A stretch of DNA of 64,000 nucleotides from Pseudomonadota bacterium (GCA_038043465.1 JBBTBX010000006.1:79463-143462), one strand, 5' to 3'; shown: positions 3,104 to 33,184, counted from the first letter of the stretch. Notes: generated from the sequence alone by a model not told the origin. Numbers and translations are program-made.

Positions 3104-4765
3104 TTAGGCAATCTGCAGCAAGGTCTTTTGCGCTTCCCAATCCATTGGAAGCGGCTGGCGTACCAGTTGACTGACATTGAGATTCCTCGGCTGAGTGCCA
3201 TTCATAATCATTGTTGTGATTTCAGGGGACAGATATTTCAGCCTCATAACATCTCCGGCATAGGTACGCTCGACTCTCTCTTTTTCGGCAATCTCTTTGA
3301 CGGATTTAATTTCACCGGACTCCAGCATCTTGTTCCACTTATAGGAACGGACGATGGCGCGGATCAGTGATTGGTCATGGTTGGTTTTGTTTATGCCGAT
3401 AGCACCGTGATTTGCTGAATATCCAATTTTACGTCCACCATAGCTCCTGAAGGTAATGCTCAGTATCACTTCAATCATGTCCGTTTTATCAAGCACTTCG
3501 ACATGCGCTGATTCTATCGCTGCCTTATCACTAACGCCATAATTTTTACTTCCGGCAATGATTTTCGATAGTTTAACCTTATCAATCATGATGGTGATTT
3601 TGTCCTCAAAAACAACTATTTTATCAACAGCTTCCCGCACAATAGCATCCACTGCTGCATGATATCTCGTGCAGATTTCGGCTTTACTAAGTTGGAGCAC
3701 TTCAAGTTTGATACGGTTTATATCCAGACTGGCAGTGCCATTGGTAATGATAGAATTGAGTTCAGCAATGCCGATCCGTGCCTTGCTGGTCTTGTTTAAA
3801 TAATAGTGATACCGCTTGCTACCGCGCTTGGTGTAAGTGGTAATAAATGGGTTGCCGGAGGCATCAGCCACCTTGCCCTTGAATAAAATTTCATGGTTCT
3901 GATTTTTTGCTGCTGTTCTTAACACAGAGTTATTTTGGAGTTGCGCCTGCACTTGGCTCCATAAGTCCTTATCAATAATAGCTTCATGCTCGCCATCATG
4001 GATGTGTTCCTTATGTCGAATTTTTCCAAGATAGAGGTAATTCGATAAAAGCGTTCTGACGCTTTGTTTTGAATGTTTGGCTGCTCCGCGCACATTACCA
4101 GATTGCGTCACCCAGCTTTTTGGTTTGTACCCATGCTGATGGAGATACTCTTTCAACAAATGTATGGATTTTAGCTCCAGATATTTTTTAAAGATGAATC
4201 TGACTTGTTCAGCTTCTGCAGGGTTAACCAGCAATTTACGATGTTGAACATCATATCCCAGCGGTATTATCCCACCCATCCACATACCTTTCTTTTTAGA
4301 TGCGGCGAATTTATCGCGGATGCGCTCACCTGTAACCTCACGTTCAAACTGCGCGAAGCTAAGCAGGATATTGAGGGTGAGCCTGCCCATGGAGTTAGTG
4401 GTGTTGAATGCTTGCGTGACCGATACGAAGGAAACATTGTTGGCATCAAAAATTTCTACCAGCTTGGAAAAATCCATCAGTGAGCGTGAGAGTCGGTCCA
4501 CCTTATAGACTACTATGACATCCACTTTTTCTTCCTTAATATCATCCAGCAGTCGCTGTAGTGCCGGGCGTTCGATTGTGCCGCCGCTGAAACCACCGTC
4601 ATCATAGCGAGTTGCAACCACCTCCCAGCCCTCATGCATCTGGCTTTGTATATACGCCTCTGCAGCAATGCGCTGTGCATCGAGGCTATTAAATTCCTGG
4701 TCCAGACCCTCCTCATGAGATTTGCGGGTATAAATTGCACAGCGTATTTTAGGAGGTTTTTTCAT
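3104..4765 (-). CDS. Large serine recombinase (resolvase/invertase catalytic domain plus recombinase domain)
   Basis: 553 aa. N-terminus KIRCAIYTRKSHEEGLDQEFNSLDAQR carries the catalytic Ser motif, followed by VVYKVDRLSRS and a long C-terminal recombinase/zinc-ribbon-type extension. Its start overlaps the upstream DUF2924 gene. Confidence 0.9.
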   Translation of the reverse strand: MKKPPKIRCAIYTRKSHEEGLDQEFNSLDAQRIAAEAYIQSQMHEGWEVVATRYDDGGFSGGTIERPALQRLLDDIKEEKVDVIVVYKVDRLSRSLMDFSKLVEIFDANNVSFVSVTQAFNTTNSMGRLTLNILLSFAQFEREVTGERIRDKFAASKKKGMWMGGIIPLGYDVQHRKLLVNPAEAEQVRFIFKKYLELKSIHLLKEYLHQHGYKPKSWVTQSGNVRGAAKHSKQSVRTLLSNYLYLGKIRHKEHIHDGEHEAIIDKDLWSQVQAQLQNNSVLRTAAKNQNHEILFKGKVADASGNPFITTYTKRGSKRYHYYLNKTSKARIGIAELNSIITNGTASLDINRIKLEVLQLSKAEICTRYHAAVDAIVREAVDKIVVFEDKITIMIDKVKLSKIIAGSKNYGVSDKAAIESAHVEVLDKTDMIEVILSITFRSYGGRKIGYSANHGAIGINKTNHDQSLIRAIVRSYKWNKMLESGEIKSVKEIAEKERVERTYAGDVMRLKYLSPEITTMIMNGTQPRNLNVSQLVRQPLPMDWEAQKTLLQIA

Positions 4766-5238: not shown

Positions 5239-5628
5239 TTATAGTTCATTATCTTCATATTCTTCCAGTTCGTGCGCAAAATCCTTAGCAAGCTCTTCAC
5301 GACTGGGAATATAAGGCAGTATAACACTAATCTTGCCGTCGCTGAAACCGTATTTTTCCGCCATATTCTGCATCATTTTTGCTGCTTGTACATTTCCATT
5401 TATGGCGCTTTCGCTCATTTTCATAAGCATCATTTCCATATAATTAGTTGTGACAACTTGACCATTGATGCGTGCTTTTCGATCACCGAAGAAAATCTTT
5501 TCTATCATATCACATATTTGCTCATGCTCTTTCTTAGGTCTCCCCTTAGGATTACCGGATTGCCCCCGTTTAAATTGCGTGCTCTTTGGTGGTTTCCCAT
5601 ACCCTACTTCATAATCATTATTATTCAT
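5239..5628 (-). CDS. DUF5681-like small basic protein
   Basis: Start trimmed to the ATG at 5628 (GGAGG 5 nt upstream; 8-nt overlap with the methyltransferase stop). The motif GYGKPPKSTQFKRGQSGNPKGRPKK matches my memory of DUF5681. Confidence 0.55.
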   Translation of the reverse strand: MNNNDYEVGYGKPPKSTQFKRGQSGNPKGRPKKEHEQICDMIEKIFFGDRKARINGQVVTTNYMEMMLMKMSESAINGNVQAAKMMQNMAEKYGFSDGKISVILPYIPSREELAKDFAHELEEYEDNEL

Positions 5629-6925
5629 ATTTTCCTCCAGCCATTTCATTAAATGTGGCGAATGAGTCAAGGTTAAATGCATCCTTGCCTGTCAAAGCCT
5701 GCCAACGGCGGATAATGACATCGCAATATTTAGGGGCGAGTTCTATACAGCGGGCGATACGTCCTGTCTTTTCAGCAGCAATCAAAGTTGTGCCGGAGCC
5801 CGCAAATGGGTCGAGCACAATATGCCCTCGCTTAGTACAGTCTTTTATGGCATCTGCAACCAACGCCACTGGCTTTACTGTTGGGTGCATTTTTAGATCC
5901 GACTGTCTACCTGCAAAGCTGTTGACTCCTGCATAATCCCATACATTGGTGCGATAACGGCCGTATTTTCCTAGCTCAATATTGTTAATATGCGGGGCAG
6001 TACCATGTTTAAAAACAACGACAAACTCATGCTTGGAGCGATACAAAGCACCCATACCGCCATTGTCTTTATTCCAAACACAAATATTTTTTAGTTCGGC
6101 GAAACATTGCTTTCCTTCCAGGAGCAGCATGTCAATATGCCGCCAGTCCATGCAGATATAGTGCAGAGACCCATCTTGACTAAAAGCGCGGGTCTGTATC
6201 ATAAAGTTTTTCAAGAACTGCCGGAACTCTTGCTCGGTCATTTCACCTGAGGCCATGGCGAATTCATCATGCTTAATCTTGCCATTGCCGCATACATGCC
6301 CCTGAATTGGTACATTATATGGCGGATCGGTAAAAATCATCTGCGCATGTTGGCCACCCAGGAGCTGGTTATAAGTATCAGGTTTTGTTGAATCACCGCA
6401 TATCAGGAGATGTGATCCCAACTGCCAGACATCTCCTGGTTTGGTTATAGTAACTGTGTGATCGAGTTCAGGAATTTCCTCATGTGGTTCCAAGATTTCG
6501 GCCCCATCTATTAGAACATCAATCTCAGACATCTCAAACCCTGTCACTTCAATTTCGAAGTTTGTTTCCAGCGTAAGATACTGCAATTCGATGGCTAGAA
6601 TATCTTTATCCCAGCCTGCGTTTGCGGCAATTTTATTATCCGCTATGATATAGGCCTTTCTTTGGGCATCAGTAAGATGATCAGTGCGTATTACCGGTAT
6701 TGATTTCAAACCCAGCTTCTTCGCAGCTTCAATGCGGCCATGCCCCGCCATAACACCACCACATGAATCAATCAATGCGGGGTTCATAAACCCGAACTCC
6801 TTGATGCTATTGGCAATCTGCTGTATTTGTTTGGGAGAATGAATACGGGCGTTATTATTATAAGGCTTCAATACCTCAATCGGAACGATTTCAACCTTCA
6901 GGTCATACAAAAGTGATTCAGACAT
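5621..6925 (-). CDS. ParB-like nuclease N-terminal domain fused to an N6/N4 DNA methyltransferase
   Basis: Start trimmed to the ATG at 6925. ParB-N motif: LKPYNNNARIHSPKQIQQIANSIKEFGFMNPALID...GHGRIEAAKKLG. Methyltransferase motif IV: FTDPPYN. Motif I: VLDPFAGSGTTLIAAE. Confidence 0.85.
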   Translation of the reverse strand: MSESLLYDLKVEIVPIEVLKPYNNNARIHSPKQIQQIANSIKEFGFMNPALIDSCGGVMAGHGRIEAAKKLGLKSIPVIRTDHLTDAQRKAYIIADNKIAANAGWDKDILAIELQYLTLETNFEIEVTGFEMSEIDVLIDGAEILEPHEEIPELDHTVTITKPGDVWQLGSHLLICGDSTKPDTYNQLLGGQHAQMIFTDPPYNVPIQGHVCGNGKIKHDEFAMASGEMTEQEFRQFLKNFMIQTRAFSQDGSLHYICMDWRHIDMLLLEGKQCFAELKNICVWNKDNGGMGALYRSKHEFVVVFKHGTAPHINNIELGKYGRYRTNVWDYAGVNSFAGRQSDLKMHPTVKPVALVADAIKDCTKRGHIVLDPFAGSGTTLIAAEKTGRIARCIELAPKYCDVIIRRWQALTGKDAFNLDSFATFNEMAGGKYE

Positions 6926-7156
6926 ATAAGTCCTTTCAAAATAGGATAACACTCAAGCGCAACGGGAACCCCATACGACTGGTGTTATCAGGTGAATAAT
7001 TTTTTTTGAAAAGATTAATATGCCTAGCCTATTAATCGCCTCGACCTTGTCGAGTTATAGTCAGCCCTCAGCCGACACATTATTAACTGCCCTTAGCAAT
7101 TGAAGATTAATGTACCATCTTTTGTATGGTATCGCAATAATAATTAATAATTGAGA

Positions 7157-7879
7157 TCATAATTTGTATTTTATTGGATTGGCCGCACCACGCTTACGCA
7201 TACTATCTGGCAATCTTTTACGAAGATATATTTTTGCTATATCAGCGGCAGCCTCGCACCCGATAAAACCCCAGCGCATACCAAGTAGTGCCTCTCTTCC
7301 CATAAAATTTTCCGGAGTTGCCTCTAGCCATTTTTCTGCAATGAACACGCCCACCACTAATCCTTGTTGCATTGCTAACACCAATTCAGCTTGCCGTGCT
7401 TTTTTTGGATCAATCTTCCACGCATACCGGACTGCTTCATAGATACTTTCCTTTTCAGTAGCAGAACGACCGATATTAATCATTAATACTTTATGGTGGA
7501 ATACTATTTCCTCCGCTTGATATCGTTCAATAATCTGCTGGGCATGCATCACGCCACGATCATCGGTATCATGCCCGCTTATCAGATTTGCTGCTTCCGG
7601 GTAAGCATCAATCAGTGCTGACTCTACTTCAAATGCGGTTTGCTCATCTAGTCCATGCCGATGAATTACATGCGCAACATCAAATCCTGAAAGCCTGATT
7701 TCACGAATGCGCTGTAACTTAACGTTTATTGCATTATCGGCTGATTCGCTCTCACCCTTAACATGAGCAAAGACACGATTGCCTAACCCCTTGCCAATAT
7801 AAAAAGTCTGACCATTGCGGGGATCAATCAGTCGATAAACATAGTAGCGAAGATGCTCGGTTATTTCTGAAGTAAACAC
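7157..7879 (-). CDS. GIY-YIG-like domain protein (copy 1 of 2 in the window)
   Basis: 240 aa with a GTG start. N-terminal YYVYRLIDPRNGQTFYIGKGLGNRVFAH fits the GIY-(X10)-YIG spacing. It is about 70 percent identical by eye to ORF 31595..32314. Confidence 0.6.
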   Translation of the reverse strand: MFTSEITEHLRYYVYRLIDPRNGQTFYIGKGLGNRVFAHVKGESESADNAINVKLQRIREIRLSGFDVAHVIHRHGLDEQTAFEVESALIDAYPEAANLISGHDTDDRGVMHAQQIIERYQAEEIVFHHKVLMINIGRSATEKESIYEAVRYAWKIDPKKARQAELVLAMQQGLVVGVFIAEKWLEATPENFMGREALLGMRWGFIGCEAAADIAKIYLRKRLPDSMRKRGAANPIKYKL

Positions 7880-8254: not shown

Positions 8255-11200
8255 TTATGATGGTAGTTCGAACAGTACTCCCACTACTTCTAACAGATTG
8301 CTAAGCCTTGGTAGACCATGAGTGCCATCAATACTCAAAATCTCGGCTGCAGTTGTGCCATCTGAATTTAAGCTCTCTAAAAGCAGCAGTTTATTCTTTA
8401 ACTGTAGACGTTTGAAGTAGCGAGCTCCGTTCTCGTCGATGGCAATAACCAGTCGACCATCCATTTTCTTCATATGCTCATTATCAAATGGCAAATCACG
8501 AGTAATCAGATATTGCCCATCCAGAGCAATAGGTTCAGCACTTCTGCCCTCTACTTTAAAGAGTCGAACATCCTTCAGTGCTTTTTCGAGAACAGAAAAG
8601 TTTTCCAGTGCAACCAGTTCAGCTGCTTCATTTTTTGGAGGAGTTGGTAGCAAATATGATGCAAAAATTGTTCCCACCACCTTCTTGCAATTGCGCTCAA
8701 TACTTTCTAGCGGAACAATAACTGGTTCAGGAACATTATATGGGTCAACGGATTGGCCACTCAGGATAGCAATTTGAGAATGGTCATCTGGTTGACTGTA
8801 ACGTCTCGCGAGCAAAGCATTTCCATGCGTAGCAACGACTAGATTGCGAGGATTAACTTTTGCATGATTACAGACAATTACAACATCTCCAATATTAGCT
8901 ATCGGATCAAAAGTTCCAGCAGCAAGCTGATAAACTTCGTGATTGGGCAGATTAATTTGTTGGAATGACTTCCATTCGGTTACCATGATTTCTCCGTCAC
9001 CAACACGACCATCTGTTTTCGCTGCAGCCGCGATTCCTGTTTGTTGCAGTTGTAATTTTTTCACCTCATCCTTAAAACCAGAAGGGAATTCAATTACATT
9101 ATCTGCCCAAGAGAATGTGCGTGGCTCACCATGAAACGATTCATACTTGTCATAAATATGGAAGGCTTCATGTATTTGTCTTTGCAATGTTTTTCCCCAA
9201 AAATCCTTAACATCAGAGGCCTCCGCCAAACCTATTGATTCATCATCTTTATGATGGGATTCATTAATTAGCTTTATGGGTTTACCTCCACCACCATTCA
9301 ATGTGTTGAAGAGACTAACGAATGCTTTTCTATTGAAAGGAGCAACATGCGCGTCTTGTAACCGCTTAAGTTCATTCTTGAGGGAGTCTAAACTCATATC
9401 GGGTATGGTAGGCCCTTCACCACGCAACATAAACTTGATTAGATCCTCGCAATAAATCCTCACATCGGAGATGTAATCACGCGCACGAGCATCATTGTTG
9501 TTGCTCTGAGCTTCATCTAAAACCCTCTGCAAACAGCCACCATTAACAATGGTGGCAACACCGGAGACTTTATTAACCCCGCCTATCAACCCTTGTTCCC
9601 CCTTCAGTTTTTCATGTTCTACGATGCATTGATAAAATTGTCGTTCATGGGTGGTGACTATCAATTGCATGTGTTGCGATTGATTTGGATTCAGATTTGC
9701 TAATCTGACAATTTCCTGCGCCCACTTTCTTTTATTGCGTGGGTCAAAAGTCGTTTGCGGGTCATCAAATACTACTAACGGGAATGGATTATATCCCAGA
9801 GTATCAAGCGTTTCTTCACGTAATGCCAAAATGAAAGACCATAAAATAGCTCTGAGCCAGGAGGTATTTGCTACCAACGCCGAGTTAATCGTTATGCCTT
9901 CTTCAAAGCTGCCCAAAACATTTACTAATTTTTTCTCTAGAGACGTATCCTCGTATTTTAATTTTTCACGCAGGTGTATTCTATCGAGTATGTCTTTAAT
10001 GCGTGTGGAAAGGCGAGCTATAGAGCTTGCAGTTTCAGCTCCAACCAAATTACGAAGTTCTTTGAGGGGCTCTAATGCTTTGGCGATTTTCTCTCGTAAT
10101 TCCTGCTCTTTTTGTATGACAGCCCATTTTGCAGTCGCATCCGCTGCTGCAGTAAGGTGCTTGGATAATGCGTCTAAAGGCTCGGCTTTTGCCAGCGCTT
10201 GCTCGAGGATAGTCAGCTGTCCTTCAATGCTTTCTGCGTCAAAAGTTCCATCGTCCTGTTTTTTACCTAGTACAGTGCTCCAGGCATTTACAAAAATCTC
10301 TCGATTCCCCCCCCACCATGTTACCAAGGCATCAAGTCTTTCTAGGGCATGCATTATACGGCGAAGATTTTGTGCCGATTCAGGTTCTTGCGTGTTGTTT
10401 TGGAACTGAGCATATGTGAACTGAGGCAACAATGCCTTCTGTGCTGCAACAATTCTTTTAGCACAGCCTGCTACGCCTGTTAGAACGTCATTAAATGGTG
10501 AATCTTCGCTGAATCTCTGCAGCACCGCTTCAGAAAAACTTTCCTTAGGATCCATAGTAACAAGCGTGTCTCGATGCTGTTTTATGGCTGATGGCAAAAG
10601 AGTGGTTAATTCCGCCTCAATTGACCGGCATACATCATCTATCTTTCTTTCCGCCGACATAGCCTGATTCTTTAACTCCGCTAATTCAGCGGCTAGCTTT
10701 TTTTGTTCTTCAGTTGAGAGGGCGGATAAACACAAGGGGCAATCGGTATTTTCATTATGCTCGTGCGGCATGATGTATGACTGAGCAGCCAAAGCCTTAA
10801 GACGGAACTTAGTATCCGCTTGCTGTTTGTTATGCCAAGATATGGCTGTTGCAAGAGTCGATCTTGCACTATTTATCGAGGCAGAGAGTTTTTTAAATTC
10901 TTCATTATCAGCAGCATCTTTTAAAGCAGCCCATGCCTCAAATACTATAATTCCTCTGGTTTTTTGATTTGCGTAGGCTCTAGCTGTTTCTACAGCTTTT
11001 TTTACTCTTTCTCTTCCGCCTGGAGTAGCCGTATCTATTTCTTGAGAAATCTCTGATTTTAATACCCCCAATTGATTCCCAGCCTGTGTGGAGAAATCCA
11101 ACGCAGCAGTCTGAAGGTTGACCACTGCATCCTTATGATTAAGTTCTATGTCTTTAGGTAAATCTACACTTAGCGTGGTGGCTAATTGGGTTGCAGCTTG

Positions 11201-12130
11201 TATTTTGTCATCATACTTATTTTTGTGAGTATCAATACCTTGATCTTTTCCATATTTCAAAAAGCGTCTGCCTGCATGTGTTAATACACCACACCCATCT
11301 GCAATATCAGCCAATTGATCAAGCCCAGTAAGCAGTTTTACGGCCTCATATAGAGATTGGCTTTTCTCGCCGAATCCAATTTTCGTTAATCGAGCAGGCA
11401 TTAAGAGGCCTGTTTCAATTAATTGAGGGGCCGAACTTAGTCTTTCATCAATCTCGACAGTTATGACTGGCGTTCCAGTGGCCTGGCAGGAAACTTGCCG
11501 ATATGCGGTGGCAATATCATTATTGCTATTCTTAAAGGTCAGACGCACCGAAACTTCTGCGGTTTTTTTCAGATCAGATACTTGAATTGGATAGGATACC
11601 ATTGGTGGCCATTTACCAATTTCTTTGCCATTTCCATCGTAGATAGGGGCATGTGTGCAATTATCTTCAATGGGGCCATCTTGATCTCGAATTCGCTTAC
11701 CCGTCAGCGTCCATAAAATCGCGCTTGCAAGCGAAGTTTTTCCTGAGCCGTTTTGTCCTTCCAGGCACCAATTGTTGCCACTTATCCATAAGTCGAAAGG
11801 CTTGCCGCCAAACTGAGTGAGCCCACCAAAACCTGACGCTTCGATTCTTTCCAGACGCCAAGACTCATTTTGACTGCCCGATTTTTCTGCGGACTCTTCA
11901 GCTGCAGGGTCATGCTTATCGTTATTCCACGCGTTAATAATTCCGGGAAACAGAGTTTCATCGCCTTGTGCAACCTTCTTAGAATCTTGTCCGAGCAGAT
12001 ACTCCATCAAGCGTCGCTGCGCGGGTAGATTTAGTGTTACATTGCCAGCTTTATGCTCAGCATATTTTGCCCACTTCAATTCCTTGCCGCTTAAAAGAGC
12101 AGTTATTGCTTCGCTTAATGAGATTGTCAT
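8255..12130 (-). CDS. Rad50/SbcC-like (AAA_13-type) ATPase with a CxxC hook, fused to two C-terminal LexA/S24-peptidase-like domains
   Basis: 1291 aa; ATG at 12130 with AAGGA upstream. Walker A GQNGSGKTSLASAILWTLTGKR; long helical middle region containing CPLC; Walker B-like PLVVFDDPQ followed by LIVTTHERQF. The C-terminus holds two repeats resembling S24: AAGTFDPIANIGDVVIV...LVVATHGNALLARRY and VEGRSAEPIALDGQYLI...DGRLVIAIDENGARYFKRL. Confidence 0.6.
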   Translation of the reverse strand: MTISLSEAITALLSGKELKWAKYAEHKAGNVTLNLPAQRRLMEYLLGQDSKKVAQGDETLFPGIINAWNNDKHDPAAEESAEKSGSQNESWRLERIEASGFGGLTQFGGKPFDLWISGNNWCLEGQNGSGKTSLASAILWTLTGKRIRDQDGPIEDNCTHAPIYDGNGKEIGKWPPMVSYPIQVSDLKKTAEVSVRLTFKNSNNDIATAYRQVSCQATGTPVITVEIDERLSSAPQLIETGLLMPARLTKIGFGEKSQSLYEAVKLLTGLDQLADIADGCGVLTHAGRRFLKYGKDQGIDTHKNKYDDKIQAATQLATTLSVDLPKDIELNHKDAVVNLQTAALDFSTQAGNQLGVLKSEISQEIDTATPGGRERVKKAVETARAYANQKTRGIIVFEAWAALKDAADNEEFKKLSASINSARSTLATAISWHNKQQADTKFRLKALAAQSYIMPHEHNENTDCPLCLSALSTEEQKKLAAELAELKNQAMSAERKIDDVCRSIEAELTTLLPSAIKQHRDTLVTMDPKESFSEAVLQRFSEDSPFNDVLTGVAGCAKRIVAAQKALLPQFTYAQFQNNTQEPESAQNLRRIMHALERLDALVTWWGGNREIFVNAWSTVLGKKQDDGTFDAESIEGQLTILEQALAKAEPLDALSKHLTAAADATAKWAVIQKEQELREKIAKALEPLKELRNLVGAETASSIARLSTRIKDILDRIHLREKLKYEDTSLEKKLVNVLGSFEEGITINSALVANTSWLRAILWSFILALREETLDTLGYNPFPLVVFDDPQTTFDPRNKRKWAQEIVRLANLNPNQSQHMQLIVTTHERQFYQCIVEHEKLKGEQGLIGGVNKVSGVATIVNGGCLQRVLDEAQSNNNDARARDYISDVRIYCEDLIKFMLRGEGPTIPDMSLDSLKNELKRLQDAHVAPFNRKAFVSLFNTLNGGGGKPIKLINESHHKDDESIGLAEASDVKDFWGKTLQRQIHEAFHIYDKYESFHGEPRTFSWADNVIEFPSGFKDEVKKLQLQQTGIAAAAKTDGRVGDGEIMVTEWKSFQQINLPNHEVYQLAAGTFDPIANIGDVVIVCNHAKVNPRNLVVATHGNALLARRYSQPDDHSQIAILSGQSVDPYNVPEPVIVPLESIERNCKKVVGTIFASYLLPTPPKNEAAELVALENFSVLEKALKDVRLFKVEGRSAEPIALDGQYLITRDLPFDNEHMKKMDGRLVIAIDENGARYFKRLQLKNKLLLLESLNSDGTTAAEILSIDGTHGLPRLSNLLEVVGVLFELPS

Positions 12131-12262: not shown

Positions 12263-12451
12263 ATGGACCACGATGAAATCATAACGGTTAAAGAGCTTGC
12301 GGAGTACCTGAAGATTGCAGAAAAAACTGCATACAGATTCCTTGCTGAAGGAACGATTCCAGGGTTTAAAGTGGGCGGTTCATGGCGGTTTCGTAAAAAG
12401 GAAATCGATGAGTGGATTGCTCGTCAGACCGAAAAAAGATTAAGTATATGA
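12263..12451 (+). CDS. Excisionase/MerR-type helix-turn-helix DNA-binding protein
   Basis: 62 aa. VKELAEYLKIAEKTAYRFLAEGTIPGFKVGGSWRFRKKEIDEWI is the typical excisionase-family HTH. Its stop overlaps the next start (ATGA). Confidence 0.75.
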   Translation: MDHDEIITVKELAEYLKIAEKTAYRFLAEGTIPGFKVGGSWRFRKKEIDEWIARQTEKRLSI

Positions 12452-18416: not shown

Positions 18417-19115
18417 ATGGCACAATATATTGTTACTGACTTAACGAGATTCAATGCTGAAGAGCAAGTCTGCACAGCTGTGATTGACATGGATAGTGGG
18501 CAATGTTTAAGGCCGATGCCTTATCTAACCAGTAAAAACGTCGAGGAGTTGAATATGCACCCCGGTGCCATACTAAGAGGTGATATTTCATTAGATCCTT
18601 CGGCTGTGAATCCACATGTTGAGGATGCAACAAGGGGTAAATTAGAGTACCATGGACCTGCATCTGGAATAGATTTTAAAGCGGTCTTAGATCGCTCATT
18701 ATCTAATTCTGTTGAATTAGGTTTTGGTATAACATTAACTGAAAACCAAAAGCATATTCCTTTTGGAGAGTATGCTAATTGTTCGATTGTTACAGTCAAA
18801 ATATCGCCAGAAGCACTAAGTATTCACGAAGATCAATACAAACCAGGAAGGATCAAAGCTTCTTTTACTGACGCGGAAGGTCATTACTTCAGTTATTTGC
18901 CTATAACAGATAGAGGCTTCTATGACTACGCAAAGAAACATCAAGATGATGGTCAACTCAGAAGTGTTAGGCAGTTTATAAAATCACAGGCGGAATTATA
19001 TTTGAGAGTCGGTGTTAGTAGGCGGCATCAAAGTGGGAATAGAGACGGATATTGGATTCAGGTAAATGGGATATATACGTTTCCAGGTTTCTTTGAAGAA
19101 ATAAGGAAGTATTAA
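18417..19115 (+). CDS. Hypothetical protein, 232 aa, no recognised motif
   Basis: Long ORF 9 nt after the mod stop and 1 nt before the next start. It is same-strand, tightly packed, and its amino-acid composition looks normal. Confidence 0.7.
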   Translation: MAQYIVTDLTRFNAEEQVCTAVIDMDSGQCLRPMPYLTSKNVEELNMHPGAILRGDISLDPSAVNPHVEDATRGKLEYHGPASGIDFKAVLDRSLSNSVELGFGITLTENQKHIPFGEYANCSIVTVKISPEALSIHEDQYKPGRIKASFTDAEGHYFSYLPITDRGFYDYAKKHQDDGQLRSVRQFIKSQAELYLRVGVSRRHQSGNRDGYWIQVNGIYTFPGFFEEIRKY

Positions 19116-19116
19116 C

Positions 19117-19746
19117 ATGAACAATACTATTTTCACGGTGGGCCATTCAACGCATGAGATCGGGAAATTTATGGATTTGCTGAAAATGCATGGCATTACA
19201 GCTATTTGTGATGTGCGCTCTTCGCCCTACAGTCGATTCAATTCTCAATACAACAGAGAAAATTTTAAATCCAGCCTCTGGGAAAATGACATTAAGTACG
19301 TTTTTCTGGGAAAAGAGCTTGGCGCTCGCAGTGACGATCCAAATTGCTATCAGGCTGGCAAAGTTCAATATGATCTACTTGCCAAAACAGAACTCTTTCA
19401 AAAGGGACTAGAACGGGTACTTCAAGGTGCAAAAGATTTTAATATAGCATTGGTTTGCGCAGAAAAAGATCCAATTGAATGCCACCGAACCATACTTGTT
19501 TCCAGGGAACTTGAAAGAAAGGGTTGCTCAATTTCTCATATTTTAGAGAATGGTGATATTCAGACTCATGATGAACTTGTTGCTAGACTAATCAAAGAGA
19601 TTAATAGTGGTCAAGCCCAAGATTTATTTATGACAGAAGTAGAAATTCGTAATCAAGCTTATAGAAAACAGGCAGATAAAATTTGTTATGCACTTCCAGA
19701 AGAGGAAGAAAATAAAGCATTAACAAAGATGGAGGCTACAAAATGA
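19117..19746 (+). CDS. DUF488-family protein (long form, 209 aa)
   Basis: IFTVGHSTHEIGKFMDLLKMHGITAICDVRSSPYSRF ... VFLGKELG ... ALVCAEKDPIECHRTILV matches the DUF488 signature as I remember it. Confidence 0.75.
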   Translation: MNNTIFTVGHSTHEIGKFMDLLKMHGITAICDVRSSPYSRFNSQYNRENFKSSLWENDIKYVFLGKELGARSDDPNCYQAGKVQYDLLAKTELFQKGLERVLQGAKDFNIALVCAEKDPIECHRTILVSRELERKGCSISHILENGDIQTHDELVARLIKEINSGQAQDLFMTEVEIRNQAYRKQADKICYALPEEEENKALTKMEATK

Positions 19747-20174
19747 AAATATTTACTATAGGCTTCACAAAAACAACGGCACAAAGTTTTTTTGACCGAC
19801 TAAGGAAATCTGGAGCAAAAAAAATAATTGACGTTCGTCTTAATAATGTTTCCCAATTAGCTGGCTTTGCCAAACAAGATGATCTTAAATACTTCGCAAA
19901 GGAGATTTGCTCAGTAAATTACAGGCACCTCCCAGAGCTAGCCCCAACCAAAGAAATGTTAGAACATTATAAAAAAAATAAAGGCTCTTGGGAAGAATAT
20001 GAAAAACGATTCAATGATCTAATGGCGCAACGCAAAATTGAACAGATTGATAGAGATATTATTGATGGTGGTTGTTTATTATGCAGTGAGGATAAGCCAC
20101 ACTTTTGCCATCGTCGATTGGTGGCTGAATATTTAAAGGACAAGTGGCATGATTTAGATATTGTACATCTTTAA
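19743..20174 (+). CDS. DUF488-family protein (short form, 143 aa)
   Basis: MKIFTIGFTKTTAQSFFDRLRKSGAKKIIDVRLNN ... LLCSEDKPHFCHRRLVAEYL. It has an ATGA overlap with the preceding DUF488 gene. Confidence 0.75.
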   Translation: MKIFTIGFTKTTAQSFFDRLRKSGAKKIIDVRLNNVSQLAGFAKQDDLKYFAKEICSVNYRHLPELAPTKEMLEHYKKNKGSWEEYEKRFNDLMAQRKIEQIDRDIIDGGCLLCSEDKPHFCHRRLVAEYLKDKWHDLDIVHL

Positions 20175-20204
20175 CTAATAATAAAATTTTGAAAAAATAA
20201 TCTT

Positions 20205-22295
20205 ATGCAGTTCCGGATCGCAGACAGTTTTACAAAGGCATTAGGCAAATTGGCTGCCCAAGAGCAATCTGCTGTCAAAATTACTGTGTTTGATCTCCAG
20301 CAGAACCCATCCGCGCCTGGGCTGCAATTCCATCGGATTGATAAATCTAAAGATGAGAATTTTTGGTCTATTCGTGCAAATCGGGACATCCGTTTGATTG
20401 TACATAAGACAGCAGATAGTTTCTTAATTTGTTATGTTGATCATCATGATGATGCCTATAAATGGGCAGAACGCAGGCGCATCGAAACACATCCAAAAAC
20501 GGGTGCGGCGCAAATTGTAGAAGTTCGTGAGCTCGTTCAAGAGATCGCGGTACCAGTTTATTCCCAGACAGGCGAAGTCGTCCCCACATTGCAGCCTAAA
20601 ACTATTGAAGCAGCGTTATTCATCAACTTGACAAAAGATGATCTGCTTGATGTTGGCGTTCCAGAAGACTGGATTGATGATGTTCAGCAATCCACAGAGG
20701 ATAAATTTTTTGAACTTACCAATCATATTCCTGCCGAAGCAGCTGAAGCTCTCTTAAATTACGCCACCACTGGAAAACTGCTGAAACCAGAGGCAGTACA
20801 GCTAAATGCTAGTCCCTTTGAGCACCCTGATGCACAGCGTCGCTTCCGTGTATTGGATAACAAAGAAGAATTGGAAAGAGCCTTGGAATATCCATGGGAT
20901 AAGTGGGCAATATTTCTACACCCAACTCAGCGTAACGTAGTTGAGCAAAAATTTAGCGGCCCTGCACGCGTTTCAGGTACTGCTGGTACAGGAAAAACAG
21001 TGGTTGCACTGCACCGCACTGCAAATATCCTAAAAAATAATCATGATGCTAGAATTCTTCTGACGACATTTTCTTCCCCATTGGCAAATGCGTTAAAACA
21101 CAAACTGAAATTGCTAACTGGCATTGATAGCGAGGATGGATCGAAGGTTAGCATCCGTTCTTTTGAGGGAGTGGCACAAGATCTATTTACCTTGGCTTAT
21201 GGACATACACCACGCGCTGCATCCAAAGATCAGGTGAAGGGTGTTCTAGAGTCTGCCAAAAAAGAACTGGGTGATACTGAATTCACTATCCGTTTCCTTG
21301 TTTCCGAATGGCAGAGCGTAATAGATGCATGGCAAATTGAGAGCCTAGAAGCCTACCGCGATGTGCCACGTCTAGGCCGAAAAAATAGACTTGGCTCTAT
21401 GCAGCGTGAACGGGTATGGCCAATTTTTACGAAGGCCAGAGAAATATTTCAATCACAAGGCATGGATACCTGGTCTGGTATTTTTTCAGCTGTGACGAAA
21501 CACTATGCAGATAAAGCTCATAAGCCATTTACGCATATTATCGTTGATGAAGCGCAGGATTTAGGAGTGCCAGAACTACGTATGCTCGCTGCGATCTCTG
21601 AATATACAGCCGATGCTTTGTTCTTTGCGGGTGACTTAGGGCAGCGGATTTTCCAGGAGCCATTCTCTTGGAAAACTCTTGGTATCGATATTCGTGGCCG
21701 CTCTCAAACATTAAAGGTTAATTACAGAACATCTCATCAAATACGCCAAAAGGCAGATAGGTTATTGCCTGCAACTGTTCGTGACGTAGATGGAAACGAA
21801 GAAGATCGCAGAGGCGCGGTTTCTGTTTTTAATGGCCCTGAGCCAGTAGTTACTATCTGCACGGACATCAATGACGAAAAGTTGGCAATTGCGAAATGGA
21901 TTAAACAGATCGTGTCTGAGGGCGTGGAGCCTGACGAAATTGGATTGTTCGTTAGGAGTAACGATGAACTCTTACGTGCAAGAAATGCTGCGAAGGAGGC
22001 TGGTTACAAGGTTTTAGAACTGTCTGATCGCGTAGAGGAGCGTAATAGCCGTATTTCGATTGGAACCATGCACCTTGCGAAAGGACTGGAGTTTAAGGCT
22101 GTAGGAGTTATTGCATGCGATGATGATATTTTGCCAAAACAAGATCGAATTGAAAACGTTGCAGATGAGGCGGAGTTAGATGAGGTTTATGATACCGAAA
22201 GGCATCTGTTCTATGTGGCCTGTACTCGTGCAAGAGATCGTTTATTCATTTCTGGTGTAGATCCTGGATCTGAATTTATAGCTGATATTAATTAA
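20205..22295 (+). CDS. UvrD/Rep-like SF1 helicase with an N-terminal RelE/ParE-toxin-like domain
   Basis: 696 aa. Walker A GTAGTGKTVVALHR; Walker B IIVDEAQDL; C-terminal HLFYVACTRARDRLFISG. The first ~90 aa (FWSIRANRDIRLIVHKTADSFLICYVDHHDDAYKW) resemble the RelE/ParE core motif. Confidence 0.8.
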   Translation: MQFRIADSFTKALGKLAAQEQSAVKITVFDLQQNPSAPGLQFHRIDKSKDENFWSIRANRDIRLIVHKTADSFLICYVDHHDDAYKWAERRRIETHPKTGAAQIVEVRELVQEIAVPVYSQTGEVVPTLQPKTIEAALFINLTKDDLLDVGVPEDWIDDVQQSTEDKFFELTNHIPAEAAEALLNYATTGKLLKPEAVQLNASPFEHPDAQRRFRVLDNKEELERALEYPWDKWAIFLHPTQRNVVEQKFSGPARVSGTAGTGKTVVALHRTANILKNNHDARILLTTFSSPLANALKHKLKLLTGIDSEDGSKVSIRSFEGVAQDLFTLAYGHTPRAASKDQVKGVLESAKKELGDTEFTIRFLVSEWQSVIDAWQIESLEAYRDVPRLGRKNRLGSMQRERVWPIFTKAREIFQSQGMDTWSGIFSAVTKHYADKAHKPFTHIIVDEAQDLGVPELRMLAAISEYTADALFFAGDLGQRIFQEPFSWKTLGIDIRGRSQTLKVNYRTSHQIRQKADRLLPATVRDVDGNEEDRRGAVSVFNGPEPVVTICTDINDEKLAIAKWIKQIVSEGVEPDEIGLFVRSNDELLRARNAAKEAGYKVLELSDRVEERNSRISIGTMHLAKGLEFKAVGVIACDDDILPKQDRIENVADEAELDEVYDTERHLFYVACTRARDRLFISGVDPGSEFIADIN

Positions 22296-22518: not shown

Positions 22519-23403
22519 TCATAGGGAAACATCACCATTGCCCAATAAGGTCATTTCGGTAATTTTCTTAAATTCCGTTAAATATTCTGGGTACTGTTGA
22601 GTAATGTATTTCACTATACGAGTATTACTAAGTAGGCTTGATAGGTAAGTTTTAGAAACCGCTAGAATTAGTACATTGGGGCCAAAGCTCTCTTCAATTA
22701 AGCGGTATTGGTTATGCAAACTCCCCATTTCCGCTTCCATCCGCGATATTTGCTCATCAGTCAGTCCTTTAATTTTCTTTGGTTGTGATGGATCAAGCAA
22801 TTGCATTTTCGGTGTTGCCGCTAATAATGCCCTGATGTAAGAAAATGAGTAAATATTAGCATCACGCATTAGAGTGGCAGCCTCAATCTGCCGTACTGGC
22901 TTCATTCTCCGTAATACGCTGAATACATTAGCGGCTACCATTTTATCCTTAAGCAATTCTACTGCTTCCGGACAAATACCCTTAAGTAAGTCACGCTTAC
23001 GGATAATATTGTTCACGTTGAGATTGAGTGCCCTCGCCAGCTTTTCTTCAGAAACCCCGCGTTTTATTGCCGTCAGTATCATACGATGTTCCTGAATAGT
23101 AGATATGCGGCTGATATGCTTATTGTAAGTATAGGTTTCGTCATCAGTCGATACTAGGCAGGCGGTTTCCTTCTCACCAACTTCTTTCAGGGCTTCAATT
23201 CGTGAATGCCCGTCGAGAAGCATATATTTTCTCTGACCTTTGCTAGGTGGTGCTACCACAGGAAGCTCTATGATACCGACCTCTTTTATAGAAGTCAGTA
23301 TCTGCTTATATTTTGCACCATCACGCATTGCCGGAGTAATGATCTTAAGAGGTGAAATATCCTCTAATTTTAACGTGACGGTAGTAGTTTCAAAACCCAA
23401 CAT
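22519..23403 (-). CDS. ParB/Srx N-terminal domain protein (second ParB-like gene of the recombinase trio)
   Basis: 294 aa. LKIITPAMRDGAKYKQILTSIKEVGIIELPVVAP...YMLLDGHSRIEALKEVG is ParB-N-like, followed by an HTH-like segment GVSEEKLARALNLNVNNIIRKRDLL. Confidence 0.7.
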   Translation of the reverse strand: MLGFETTTVTLKLEDISPLKIITPAMRDGAKYKQILTSIKEVGIIELPVVAPPSKGQRKYMLLDGHSRIEALKEVGEKETACLVSTDDETYTYNKHISRISTIQEHRMILTAIKRGVSEEKLARALNLNVNNIIRKRDLLKGICPEAVELLKDKMVAANVFSVLRRMKPVRQIEAATLMRDANIYSFSYIRALLAATPKMQLLDPSQPKKIKGLTDEQISRMEAEMGSLHNQYRLIEESFGPNVLILAVSKTYLSSLLSNTRIVKYITQQYPEYLTEFKKITEMTLLGNGDVSL

Positions 23404-23456
23404 ATAAGATGCTCACCATTTTTATTTTGTTAATTTTTTTATATTTTTAATTGGTG

Positions 23457-24347
23457 TTATTTACCTGATATCAATGTTGCCAGTTGTTTAGGCATGGTAT
23501 CCAGACTCTCCGCTCGCAGGAGGGTAGTAAAATGTTCTTGCTGCATCAGACTACGCATAGCTTCCTTAAGAAACATCAGCCGGTTATTTACCAAGTCCGC
23601 TTTACGTTCCACCAACTGCTTGCGGGCTACTTCGCGTTTATAGGTCCTGATAATATTCTGACCGAAATCAGAAACATTGTTCCCTGAATGAGTCTTGCTT
23701 CTTGCACCACGCAGTGTTTTTCCAGCACGCCTACGATCTTCAAAGAGGCGCTTGGCAGCCATAAACTTACTACCGCTTAGATGGCCTTTTTCATAGGCTT
23801 CTTGGAGAACTTCTTGCTCGTTTTTAGGAGAACTGGCAATATTTATAGCAAGCATAATAGGGATATTGCCCGATTCAACTGCTGCGACTAATCGTTCCTC
23901 GCCCTGTTCAAGCAATGTAATGATATTATTTATATAATCTGTGCTGTGTCCTATCTTGGCGGCAATGGCTTTTGCATTATATCCTTGCCTGAGCAATATT
24001 TCCACGCCTTGCAATAAATCCATTGCTCGGTGTTTACGCCGCGCAACATTTTCTACCAAGCTCATGATAAGTGCTTTTTCCTCACTAGCATCAATTATCA
24101 TGGCAGGAATCATTTTTTGGCCACAAGCCATGAATGCTTCCAGTCTTCCTTGCCCGCATACTAAATCATAGTCTTTACCTCCTGTTTTAGAATGACAGGC
24201 TGTAACAGTGATAGGACGTTTAAGCCCAACCTTGGCAATATTTTGCACAATGCCCTCGAACAGTTTAGGATTACGGTAACGGGGATTCATAATATTGATC
24301 TGATCTACTGGAATCATGCCGATAGTTGGCGTGTTTTTTACAGTCAT
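23457..24347 (-). CDS. ParB-like partition/nuclease domain protein
   Basis: 296 aa. IPVDQINIMNPRYRNPKLFEGIVQNIAKVGLKRPITV...DLVCGQGRLEAFMACG followed by ENVARR and an HTH (AKAIAAKIGHSTDYINNIITLL). Its start overlaps the recombinase stop (ATGA). Confidence 0.75.
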   Translation of the reverse strand: MTVKNTPTIGMIPVDQINIMNPRYRNPKLFEGIVQNIAKVGLKRPITVTACHSKTGGKDYDLVCGQGRLEAFMACGQKMIPAMIIDASEEKALIMSLVENVARRKHRAMDLLQGVEILLRQGYNAKAIAAKIGHSTDYINNIITLLEQGEERLVAAVESGNIPIMLAINIASSPKNEQEVLQEAYEKGHLSGSKFMAAKRLFEDRRRAGKTLRGARSKTHSGNNVSDFGQNIIRTYKREVARKQLVERKADLVNNRLMFLKEAMRSLMQQEHFTTLLRAESLDTMPKQLATLISGK

Positions 24348-25906
24348 GCAATCTCCTGTATAAACACTCGTTCAGTCAGCAAAAAGAATGCTTCCAGATC
24401 TTCAAATCGGTAGGCATCAAGGGCAAGGCCGTTATGTTCCGAGAGCCGCATCTTGGGATTTTCAATATCAATGGCAGGCAGCAAGTAATAATCGTAAGCG
24501 TTTTCGTTTTCTGCATCCATGCGGATGGCAATCGTGATGTCTGGAAGCAGACCGCTATCGAGATGGATTTTCCAACGGAATGAACCCGAATCAGTTTGTT
24601 TGCAGCGGCAAATAACAACCGAAGCTCTTAGTTCTTCATTGATAATCAATAGCTCTGAGGATTCTTCCTGACGAACTTTACCGCCTAGTTCTTCTATTTT
24701 ACGGATAGTCTCAGCAATAACTTCCTTATGAATTCCTCTTAGACGACGGTTGATTTCTATAAAGCTATAATCATGGTCAGGAGTAAAACCAATAAGCTCA
24801 TAGGCTCTTATTAGACTGCCAAACCTATGAGAATAGGCAGTCGAGGATGGCATGCCATCAGCTTCATTGATAACTATACCCGATAGCCAACCATGCTGCT
24901 CATGTAATTTACGGAGCTTCTCTAGCATTTCCTCATCTGTGAACTTACGGCTGCGTTCCCGGATAATGCCTTGCGCAGTATAATAATAGCGAGCTTCTAC
25001 TATTGCCTCGAACACACCATCCTTGCGTACCCACATCTCTGGAGTATTAACTACATGTCGTTTCTTCAGTTTGAAGGAAGTGCGGTTAAATACATTATTA
25101 CCTATGTATTTTTCGTTGGTCAGCACCTCATGCACAGTACCATTGGTCCATTTACGCCCTAGGTCAGTTAATACACCACGTTGGTTTAATAGAGCGGCAA
25201 TCTGGCTCTCGCGCATTCCTTCTTCGGTAAATGCCTTATACATCCAGCACACATTTTCCACCTCATCCTCTGGCCCAGGCACAAGAATAACTCTATCAGT
25301 TTGCAGACTCTTGTGCTCACCGCGCTTAAGCTCGGCTTTTTGCCGACCATGTTCGTCAATCAATACCCGGCGTAAGCCATATCCGGCGGGTCCGCCTTGA
25401 CGGTAGCCAAGTTCTATCAAACGGCATTGTCCGGCGAATACTTTGCTAGATAGCTCACGGCTATATTCACCAGCCATTGCTCGCTTCACACCTTTAACAA
25501 TGGTTGAAACTGGACTGCCATCATTTTCAAATTGCTCAGCTACGTACTGAACGTCAATTCCAGCGCGGCGGCAGATATATTCATAATAGGCACTTTCATC
25601 CGCATCCTGAAACCTGCCCCAACGGGTTATGTCCAATACCAGTATCATGTTGAACTTAGCATTTTCGGTTTGCACATCATCAATGAGCTGTTTCAGCGCA
25701 TCACGGCCATCAATGCTCAACCCACTTTTTCCGGAATCGGTATAAATTTGAATAATTTCAATATTATAACGTGCGGCATATTCACGAATGGCATCCGCCT
25801 GATTTTCAGTAGAATATTTCTGGTGATCAGTGGACATACGCACATACATGGCAGCGCGGCGAATAGGGTTATTATAGCTGGTATAGTTTTTCACATTAGA
25901 GCCCAT
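24344..25906 (-). CDS. Large serine recombinase (second copy, different subfamily from 3104..4765)
   Basis: 520 aa. RAAMYVRMSTDHQKYSTENQ carries the catalytic Ser, followed by LVLDITRWGRF and recombinase-domain motifs (GYGLRRVLID...). Confidence 0.9.
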   Translation of the reverse strand: MGSNVKNYTSYNNPIRRAAMYVRMSTDHQKYSTENQADAIREYAARYNIEIIQIYTDSGKSGLSIDGRDALKQLIDDVQTENAKFNMILVLDITRWGRFQDADESAYYEYICRRAGIDVQYVAEQFENDGSPVSTIVKGVKRAMAGEYSRELSSKVFAGQCRLIELGYRQGGPAGYGLRRVLIDEHGRQKAELKRGEHKSLQTDRVILVPGPEDEVENVCWMYKAFTEEGMRESQIAALLNQRGVLTDLGRKWTNGTVHEVLTNEKYIGNNVFNRTSFKLKKRHVVNTPEMWVRKDGVFEAIVEARYYYTAQGIIRERSRKFTDEEMLEKLRKLHEQHGWLSGIVINEADGMPSSTAYSHRFGSLIRAYELIGFTPDHDYSFIEINRRLRGIHKEVIAETIRKIEELGGKVRQEESSELLIINEELRASVVICRCKQTDSGSFRWKIHLDSGLLPDITIAIRMDAENENAYDYYLLPAIDIENPKMRLSEHNGLALDAYRFEDLEAFFLLTERVFIQEIA

Positions 25907-29904: not shown

Positions 29905-30825
29905 TTATCCGTCACAGGCGTAACCCTTCCTGTGTCCATATCGACTCGTGACCAAATATAATGTTGGTGGGTTCTGCCTCCCCGCTCCCCTCCGAACATG
30001 TTTTGATTCTAGGGTGATGAAGGTCGATTTTGGGTGGATCTCGGCACGGTCACGACGCCAGCGGCAAAGTGAGTGTTTATGCTCACATGCATTGAGCAAG
30101 AATTCATAGAATTGGCTGTCACTCATTTCACCCGATGCCATAGCAAACTCAGCATGTTTTACTTTGCCATTGCCACACACGTGGCCATCGATTGGCACAT
30201 TATAGGGCGGGTCAGTAAATACCATATCCACTTTTATCTCGCCGAGTAATATGCGGTAGGTTTCTGGTTGGAGCGCATCACCGCATATCAGCCGATGTTT
30301 CCCCATGATCCAAACGTCACCAGGCTGCGTAATAGCTGGCGCGGCAGCCACATCTGGGATAACATCAGCGGGATCGTTTTCTTGCGGCGCATCCATAATC
30401 AGGTCAATTTCCGCCACTTCAAAGCCAGTGTCTTCGATATCAAAACCCTCAGTATCTATTTTACACAGATGCTCAAATTCAATGGATAATATATTTGTAT
30501 CCCAATCAGCATTTTCAGCAATTTTATTGTCGGCAATAATAAATGCGCGAACCTGATCCTTGCTCAAATGCCGCGTACTAATAATTGGCACTTGCGCCAT
30601 ACCCAATTTCTTTGCCGCTTCCACCCTGCCATGCCCGGCCATAATCATGTATTTATCATTGACCAATACTGGATTGATGAAACCAAACTTGGTGATGCTG
30701 TTAGCGATCTGTTGAATCTGTTTGGCAGGGTGAATTCGCGCGTTATTTTTATAGGGCTGGAGCTGCTCGATCGGAGCATAGCGAACAGTCAGCCTGTCTA
30801 TTGTATCATTTATAGTTTCATTCAT
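29905..30825 (-). pseudogene. Truncated paralogue of the ParB-DNA methyltransferase fusion (lacks the SAM-binding motif I region)
   Basis: The first ~250 aa parallel ORF 5621..6925 (LQPYKNNARIHPAKQIQQIANSITKFGF..., FTDPPYNVPIDGHVCGNGKVKHAEFAMASGEM). After ...FLLNACEHKHS the sequence is unrelated, and no DPFxGSGTT motif follows. Confidence 0.65.
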
Positions 30826-33063: not shown

Positions 33064-33184
33064 CGGTATAAATGACAATATATTTTTATTGTTAAATTTC
33101 TAAAACAGTATGTATATCAACGTTATAACTCTTCAATGTTTATTCCTTAGGGATCAGCACTGCGTTTATAACAGTCGAAATGAA

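Follow-up and report, generated by a model that had tools for sequence, protein, structure and literature searches.

The window considered here is a 64,000-nucleotide stretch of DNA from a Pseudomonadota bacterium (GCA_038043465.1, JBBTBX010000006.1:79463-143462), and the gene of interest within it is a long open reading frame (ORF) for a protein of 1291 amino acids (aa) in which a Rad50-like ATPase, a helical domain and a tandem of LexA/S24-like domains are joined in a single polypeptide. An earlier annotation of this DNA, made from the sequence alone and here termed the original prediction, had located the ORF, which lies on the minus strand, a detail missing from that account, and had quoted six motifs from its product. 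Both the ORF and the motifs have withstood re-examination: GQNGSGKTS is found in the translation at residues 125-133, CPLC at 464-467, LVVFDDPQ at 785-792, THERQF at 827-832, GRSAEP at 1195-1200 and YFKRL at 1238-1242. When 5.8 billion proteins were searched, 298 homologues came up at E<=1e-5; the top 120 are nearly all ~1290 aa long, align mostly end to end at 51-93% identity, and carry only the annotations 'AAA family ATPase' or 'hypothetical protein'. Because the homologues are mostly full-length at ~1290 aa, the long ORF did not arise by a local fusion but is a real gene that has been conserved.

Conservation was assessed in an alignment of 81 sequences, comprising the target and 80 homologues down to ~20% identity, and counts of homologues given below refer to this set. 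Invariant positions include the Walker A Gly, Asn, Gly and Lys residues, C464 and C467 of the CPLC motif, N755, R760, D789 and D796 in the ATPase, and Ser1197, Pro1200 and Lys1240 in the C-terminal tail; D790 is present in 78 homologues and Q792 in 79. Given this conservation, the quoted motifs are far from chance. The original prediction had further held the architecture to be undescribed, and this stands: no named family in the PADLOC, Pfam or NCBIfam libraries possesses it, the scan against PADLOC v2 gave only partial, ATPase-level matches and no significant model beyond these, and a search of the literature on S24/LexA-like domains joined to SMC, Rad50, RloC or defence, which did not take in the ABC ATPase classification of Krishnan et al. 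(2020), found no description of it. The gene belongs to a rare, uncharacterised and stand-alone family whose members consist of a Rad50-like zinc-hook ATPase, a domain that is probably an RNase, and a protease tail of the LexA type.

Domain architecture of the protein

Residues 1-860 form a coiled-coil ATP-binding cassette (ABC) ATPase of the Rad50/SMC class. An AlphaFold model of this part, built from the 81 sequences, has a predicted local distance difference test score (pLDDT) of 89.5 and consists of a small N-terminal domain followed by an ABC head that is interrupted by ~420 mostly helical residues, with C464 and C467 located in a non-helical apex (residues 450-473). In a Foldseek comparison of this model with the PDB, Rad50 ranked first (7zr1, E 8e-12), followed by SMC heads, Lamassu LmuB (9hqx, 9uxh, 9nyg), JetC and MukB. 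The CxxC motif at the coiled-coil apex is a probable zinc hook, as judged from its invariant cysteines, and the Rad50-like ATPase with CxxC foreseen in the original prediction is thereby upheld. The Pfam models that match the target are SMC_N and AAA_23, with sub-threshold matches to AAA_15, AAA_21 and Rad50_zn_hook (17.9 bits, under the cut-off of 24.3). The best PADLOC match is LmuB (PDLC03859, E 6.6e-19, residues 303-849); weaker matches to PrrC, AriA and others fall on the ATPase C-lobe, where the PrrC model covers residues 762-839. The label 'AAA_13-like' previously attached to the protein had to be dropped, since the target reaches 8.9 bits with Pfam AAA_13, whose cut-off is 36 (E 0.73), and SMC_N/AAA_23, LmuB and the Rad50 fold all match better. 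The ABC signature, also in the C-lobe, is degenerate in the target (ANTSWLR). The extension that precedes the head (residues 1-91) has no family match in Pfam, and its conserved residues are L33, R39, R40, W68, D74, P75 and W91.

The last ~260 aa form two homologous domains of the LexA/S24 fold. The Pfam Peptidase_S24 model (PF00717) scores 27.1 bits on the whole protein, above its curated cut-off of 23.3, and 31.2 bits on the C-terminal fragment of the target, where the match covers the distal repeat only; it was likewise found in 21 of 22 homologous C-terminal fragments (E<=0.01). An AlphaFold model of residues 851-1291 (pLDDT 80.7) has two beta-rich domains in the tail, for which Foldseek retrieved lambda cI and the LexA C-terminal domain from the PDB (probability 1.0, template modelling score 0.5-0.63, root-mean-square deviation ~3 Å over ~100 residues) and phage CI/LexA-like repressors from BFVD (E 6e-6). 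Profile-profile alignment with hhalign established that the two repeats are homologous to one another (95% probability, E 2.7e-8), pairing Thr1073 with Ser1197 and Arg1109 with Lys1240. Each repeat also aligned at E ~2-5e-5 (proximal repeat, 1.8e-5) with an S24 reference, namely a three-sequence LexA/UmuD/cI alignment, and in this comparison Ser1197 fell on LexA S119 and Lys1240 on LexA K156. The kinship of the tail with LexA is visible only by the Pfam model, profile-profile alignment and fold comparison: phmmer searches with the C-terminus or the whole protein, and a search with the C-terminal family profile, found nothing meaningful among PDB sequences, and hhalign told little when run on LexA or UmuD as single sequences, more diverse family alignments and the three-sequence S24 reference being needed.

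The proximal S24-like domain is probably a pseudo-protease, as judged from the Thr and Arg that stand at its dyad positions; Thr1073 is present in 69 of the 80 homologues and Arg1110 in all of them. Divergent plasmid-borne relatives carry GDS or GES in the proximal repeat, yet Arg-Arg replaces Lys there, and in these proteins too the distal Ser and Lys are retained. The tandem S24 repeats, the intact distal dyad and the substituted proximal dyad had each been proposed in the original prediction, and all three are now supported by profile and structure searches, both of which place the C-terminus in the S24/LexA-like fold. A HMMER scan of 1.84 billion representative proteins with residues 1023-1291 detected the tandem module in 190 proteins, of which those that are full-length are all ~1230-1350 aa long with the module at the C-terminus; the tandem S24 module is thus exclusive to the target family.

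Ahead of the proximal repeat the model contains a beta hairpin, which had escaped the original prediction, with strands at residues 1028-1036 and 1047-1059 and a low-pLDDT tip (1037-1047). The strand-loop-strand cleavage region of LexA occupies the same position. The Ala run of the hairpin loop is conserved in 68-77 of the 80 homologues, and hhalign places AAAA-K (A1037-K1038) over VAA-G of LexA (A84-G85), albeit at low posterior. No such hairpin accompanies the distal repeat in the AlphaFold model, and the module therefore comprises one active site and one candidate substrate loop.

Between the ATPase and the S24 tail lies a 135-residue, all-helical domain. The original prediction, which had sought the output of the protein in the ATPase or the protease, had missed this domain and the invariant Arg-x3-Glu...His that it carries. 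Among 32 sequences picked for diversity, R891, E895 and H960 are the sole invariant residues of the domain, and in the larger alignment His959 and Asn956 are mostly conserved. The Arg-x3-Glu motif lies in predicted helix 2 and is followed at +4 by Lys or Arg in most of the main clade; the Asn-x3-His motif ends a short helix directly ahead of the final long helix, and two extra helices are inserted between the helices that bear the two motifs. The position of the domain, directly after the ATPase C-lobe, is that of the nuclease domain in RloC and PrrC. In those proteins the anticodon-nuclease triad reads Arg-X3-Glu-X36-52-His, often with a small residue before the His, and every triad residue is essential in RloC (PMC2610378). 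PrrC and RloC belong to the HEPN superfamily, whose members have a catalytic His where helix 3 terminates, together with an acidic residue in helix 2, often within Ex3[KR]; inserts between helices 2 and 3 are frequent, and some families obtain the motif Arg from elsewhere (PMC3710099). The residue pattern, the predicted topology and the position after a zinc-hook ABC head together make a well-motivated case that the helical domain may be an RloC-like RNase domain, and it is a likelier effector than either the ATPase or the protease.

Table 1. Features of the target gene and its product, in window coordinates
Feature	Residues	Position	Strand	Remarks
Whole ORF	1-1291	8255..12130	(-)	1291 aa, ATG start, single-gene module
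N-terminal conserved extension, small alpha/beta domain	1-91	11858..12130	(-)	modelled pLDDT 80-94
ABC ATPase head, N-lobe	92-298	11237..11857	(-)	Pfam SMC_N, AAA_23; Rad50/SMC fold
Walker A GQNGSGKTS	125-133	11732-11758	(-)	invariant
Long helical (coiled-coil) insert	299-720	9971..11236	(-)	AlphaFold2 secondary structure
CPLC, candidate zinc hook	C464, C467	10730..10741	(-)	non-helical apex, residues 450-473
ABC ATPase head, C-lobe	721-850	9581..9970	(-)	PADLOC PrrC and AriA matches fall here
Walker B/D-loop LVVFDDPQTTFD		9755-9778	(-)	in C-lobe
H-loop TTHERQF		9635-9655	(-)	in C-lobe
Helical domain, candidate HEPN/anticodon-nuclease-like effector	865-1000	9131..9538	(-)	all-helical, pLDDT ~88-90
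R891-x3-E895(-x3-K899)	891-899	9434-9460	(-)	in helical domain
N956-x3-H960	956-960	9251-9265	(-)	in helical domain
Beta hairpin, loop IAAAAKTDGRxGDG, candidate cleavage-site region	1028-1059	8954..9049	(-)	AlphaFold model, conservation
Proximal S24-like domain	1060-1156	8663..8953	(-)	profile-profile alignment, conservation
Dyad positions of proximal domain	Thr1073; Arg1109	8912-8914; 8804-8806	(-)	
Distal S24 domain	1172-1291	8258..8617	(-)	Pfam PF00717, LexA/cI fold
Dyad of distal domain	Ser1197; Lys1240	8540-8542; 8411-8413	(-)	

Distribution and genomic setting

The family is rare and patchily distributed, with 58 loci among 185,579 species represented by one genome each; the hosts are mostly Alphaproteobacteria, with some Gammaproteobacteria, Nitrospirota and Acidobacteriota. 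Homologue neighbourhoods, whose survey the original prediction had proposed, are populated by mobile elements and defence genes. Sixteen homologues reside on plasmids, 10 of them conjugative, and another is carried by an integrative and conjugative element (ICE) near genes for a type IV secretion system, a relaxase and ArdC. One homologue lies between hsdS and hsdR of a type I restriction-modification (R-M) operon, one is beside a DUF4011 helicase and Fic, one adjoins SLATT and reverse transcriptase genes and one is near Shedu; other flanks include type ISP R-M, type III R-M, nSTAND3, reverse transcriptase/DRT, PDC-S31 and integrases. Surroundings of this kind are what one usually finds around mobile defence genes. 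Copies 91-93% identical to the target (P0001 and P0002, plus a 93%-identical partial copy on a contig of a Beijerinckiaceae metagenome-assembled genome) occur in other assemblies and suggest recent horizontal transfer of the target allele, whose next relatives are ~63% identical or less.

All-against-all clustering of flanking ORFs at 48 loci revealed no conserved neighbour, in that no gene family recurred at more than 6 loci and none held a fixed position. A conserved operon partner, as expected of Lamassu or of a Rad50-Mre11 pair, was rejected on these grounds, and the gene is accordingly, as had been proposed, a stand-alone, single-gene module. At four of the 48 loci, L007, L038 and L042 among them, a ~1170-aa AAA_27 (YhaN-like) ATPase and a ~420-aa gene adjoin the homologue; the ~420-aa gene clusters across those four loci, and both genes mostly lie upstream of the homologue and share its strand. 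The arrangement recalls an SbcCD-like layout, and the two Rad50-like ATPases are thus found together occasionally. At two Bradyrhizobium loci a large S8 subtilase of ~1170 aa is encoded shortly downstream of the homologue, and an S8 peptidase is also found near the copy on a Methylorubrum plasmid, next to a Shedu nuclease.

The window itself contains a lower-GC stretch (41-47%) that starts at a tRNA-Ala gene (2804-2879) and extends to ~32 kb, after which GC content is ~50%. The rise at ~32000-34000 fits the end of an acquired region, and a 1258-aa ORF (38333-42109, minus strand) lies beyond it; an attR copy of the tRNA-Ala 3' end was not found in the window. The lower-GC stretch carries a large serine recombinase, DUF2924, DUF5681, a ParB-methylase, a GIY-YIG protein, the target and a divergent type III res-mod operon, followed by DuOB, DUF488, a UvrD-like helicase, two ParB-like genes and a second serine recombinase. 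The first recombinase (3104-4765) directly follows tRNA-Ala(GGC) at the start of the island. The two ParB-like genes and the second recombinase form a further module at 22519-25906, and the same three-gene module, at 45-49% identity, adjoins the Sinorhizobium glycinis homologue. Recombinase-borne elements of one shared family, with the target as cargo, are suggested by this. Genes for ParB-N-terminal/N6-N4 DNA methylases occur twice on the minus strand, at 5621-6952 and 29905-30825; the second copy is shorter (306 aa), has lost its likeness to the first towards the end of the reading frame, and may be a truncated or frameshifted copy that marks a second element or the far end of the island.

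Located 375 bp downstream of the target, on the same strand, is a gene for a 240-aa protein with a LEM-3-like GIY-YIG nuclease domain (7157-7879, minus strand), which is probably an independent gene because it is not conserved beside homologues. A weak terminator-like hairpin follows the target stop codon. On the other side, the type III R-M operon that the original prediction had placed divergently next to the gene, inside an island, is present as described, but a conserved link between the two was rejected: the res and mod genes of the window occur at no homologue locus, and their proximity to the target is specific to this window. The divergent intergenic region holds a 62-aa ORF (12263-12451, plus strand) with the look of an excisionase/MerR-type helix-turn-helix protein (ITVKELAEYLKIAEKTAYRFLAEGTIPGFKVGGSWRFRKKEIDEW), which overlaps the start of res and may be a controller of the R-M operon; the ATG at 12448 (MSGTFYEKP...) is a more likely start for res than the GTG at 12412. 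Right after mod, the plus-strand genes at 18417-22295 may constitute another accessory or defence module of the island; they comprise a weakly DuOB-like gene, a DUF488 gene (Pfam), a 143-aa ORF, and the gene for a UvrD-like helicase that is extended at its N-terminus.

Relation to known systems

The nearest known system is RloC by function and layout, Lamassu LmuB by sequence and Rad50 by fold, and the tail is a divergent S24 peptidase. RloC proteins are ~800 aa long, and the target is ~500 residues longer. Like the target, RloC and PrrC combine in one polypeptide a Rad50-like ABC head, with a DDP-type Walker B/D-loop and an H-loop, and, right after the head, a helical domain with an Arg-x3-Glu...His conserved core; RloC additionally shares the coiled-coil insert with a CxxC zinc hook, although zinc binding by the target is a prediction. 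The genes further resemble one another in lying now and then within R-M loci of type I or type III (PMC2610378, PMC3710099) and in a suggested link to DNA damage (PMC3874168). Against these likenesses, neither sequences nor profiles match significantly across the nuclease domain, the PrrC model matching the ATPase C-lobe only, and membership of the target in the RloC/PrrC group by sequence was rejected for lack of detectable homology across that domain. In comparison with RloC and PrrC as described (PMC2610378, PMC3710099), the target also has two additions, the 90-aa N-terminal extension and the 260-aa tandem S24 module.

The S24 module shares with LexA, UmuD and lambda cI the fold, the G-x-S-[AM]-x-P and [FV]-K-[RK]-L motifs, and a strand-loop-strand element ahead of the catalytic core, and its Ser-to-Lys spacing of 43 residues is that of lambda cI, compared with 37 in LexA and UmuD. 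It differs from them in that the domain occurs in tandem with one copy inactivated, in its fusion to an ATPase where the comparison proteins have a DNA-binding domain, in a candidate scissile loop of Ala-Ala-Ala-x in place of Ala-Gly or Cys-Gly, and in a degree of divergence that puts LexA beyond the reach of phmmer and of the family profile run against the PDB. LmuB is the best sequence match in the defence database and is similar in the fold of its head and coiled coil; however, Lamassu (LmuACB/DdmABC) needs a separate LmuA effector and usually LmuC, whereas the target has a candidate effector and regulator in cis and no conserved partner. Membership in Lamassu was rejected, no adjacent LmuA or LmuC being found at the 48 loci. 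Rad50/SbcC, which supplies the top structural match and likewise bears CxxC at the coiled-coil apex, differs from the target in its Mre11/SbcD partner, for which there is no conserved counterpart at those loci, and in lacking the shorter arms, extra C-terminal domains and mobile, patchy distribution of the target family.

Proposed mechanism and competing readings

We consider, with a probability of roughly 0.4, that the protein is an RloC-like abortive-infection or stress-response nuclease in which the S24 tail acts as a proteolytic safety catch; the RNase activity, cut site, trigger, order of events and defence phenotype are all conjectural parts of this proposal. Sensing would fall to the Rad50/SMC-type ABC ATPase and the coiled coil that bears its zinc hook, which, by analogy with Rad50, RloC and LmuB, might recognise the ends of DNA or DNA that is foreign or damaged. 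The effector would be the helical domain, with Arg891, Glu895 and His960 forming a HEPN-type, metal-independent RNase site that would cut tRNA or other RNA and so shut down translation. The tandem S24 module, as an intramolecular pseudo-dimer, would hold this effector off, its catalytically dead proximal half bearing the cleavage-loop hairpin and its distal half the Ser1197/Lys1240 dyad. On activation, whether by RecA-single-stranded DNA filaments arising from phage replication or DNA damage, by an ATPase-driven conformational change, or by both, the distal active site would cleave the Ala-rich loop close to Ala1037-Lys1038, acting in trans inside the pseudo-dimer in the manner of UmuD2, and departure of the C-terminal piece (~254 residues, ~28 kDa) would allow RNase domains to pair and act. 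RecA-filament input would fit because RloC is activated by DNA breaks (PMC3874168). The most specific form of the proposal, in which RecA filaments trigger an S24 self-cleavage that unleashes the fused HEPN-like RNase, the S24 duplicates having split into a substrate half and an enzyme half, is tentative and somewhat doubtful.

Several observations weigh against the proposal. The Glu-to-His spacing in the helical domain is 64 residues, beyond the range of 36-52 in RloC, and Ile, Leu or Met stands where the canonical HEPN Rx4-6H motif has its Arg ([ILM]-N956-x3-H960). Profile, PDB and fold searches did not match the domain significantly with any profile or structure of HEPN, PrrC or RloC: scans of helical domains against Pfam (10 diverse members) and PADLOC (32 members) produced nothing relevant, the PADLOC scan of the target contained no RloC model at E<=1, and no HEPN structure is among the listed Foldseek matches of residues 851-1291. 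A profile of the domain run against the 5.8-billion-protein collection likewise found only chance matches or fragments of the target family itself, and on all these results homology of the helical domain to HEPN or RloC is unproven. In the hairpin loop, the 80 homologues have no invariant Ala-Gly or Cys-Gly bond, and the loop varies in divergent relatives. An SOS box (CTGT-N8-ACAG, <=1 mismatch) is absent upstream of the target, SOS-box matches in the window as a whole are fewer than chance predicts, and nothing at this locus ties the protein to RecA directly. Finally, we infer a defence role from neighbourhood and mobility only.

The absence of a canonical Ala-Gly site, together with the loss of the dyad from the proximal repeat, would also suit a protein in which the S24 tandem does not cleave at all and serves instead as an adaptor, docking the ATPase on RecA filaments or mediating oligomerisation, with ATPase-driven processing of DNA or RNA as the output. 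LexA, UmuD and lambda cI indeed bind the RecA filament groove through the S24 fold (PMC9926225). However, Ser1197, Lys1240 and Pro1200 are invariant in all 80 homologues, which would be hard to account for without catalysis, and non-catalytic S24-like domains usually lose their dyad, as the proximal repeat did; we regard the adaptor as unlikely. The same intact dyad could equally equip a protease-armed sensor, whose distal S24 domain would cut a host or phage protein in trans while the helical domain, for which profiles and folds provide no evidence of a nuclease, would be a linker or regulator. Proteases are known effectors in other defence systems, yet the characterised S24 peptidases, LexA, UmuD and cI, cleave themselves and do not act as general proteases, the polypeptide contains a LexA-like substrate hairpin of its own, and the helical domain has an invariant Arg, Glu and His such as active sites typically possess. 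These points make a protease acting in trans quite improbable.

A function outside immunity has also to be weighed, namely that of a Rad50/RecN-like DNA-repair or chromosome-maintenance factor tuned by SOS-type self-cleavage. Rad50 and SMC heads are the best structural matches, S24 domains are part of the DNA-damage response, and the YhaN-like ATPase with its uncharacterised ~420-aa companion stands next door, in a layout reminiscent of SbcCD, at four of the 48 loci. The very rare and patchy occurrence of the family, its location on plasmids, ICEs and islands and within R-M operons, the horizontal transfer to which the nearly identical copies elsewhere point, and the lack of a conserved Mre11/SbcD-type partner nonetheless argue against a housekeeping role of this kind, which has little probability. 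A degenerate Lamassu-type system, with an LmuB-like ATPase and with LmuA and LmuC encoded elsewhere, is the least credible explanation, for although LmuB is the best PADLOC match and its structures are among the top fold matches, no LmuA-like, LmuC-like or other conserved neighbour is found at the 48 loci and the target has its own 440-residue C-terminal extension, which has no LmuB counterpart, the LmuB model stopping at residue 849.

Under the proposal of a nuclease held in check by an S24 safety catch, we infer an abortive-infection protein of the ABC-ATPase-plus-nuclease type to which a LexA-type module has been added, the latter being unprecedented. If this is true, SOS-style cleavage would here, for the first time, have a defence effector and not a repressor as its direct target, and an irreversible proteolytic switch of SOS origin inside the effector would represent a new route for arming an abortive-infection nuclease. 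RecA/LexA signalling would then be joined to SMC/Rad50-type immune sensors such as RloC and Lamassu. The system would be compact, occupying one gene, and point mutations in Walker A, the CxxC motif, R891/E895/H960 and S1197/K1240 could be used to tell sensing, licensing and killing apart; its tandem of one active and one inactive S24 domain would be a natural model of UmuD trans cleavage.

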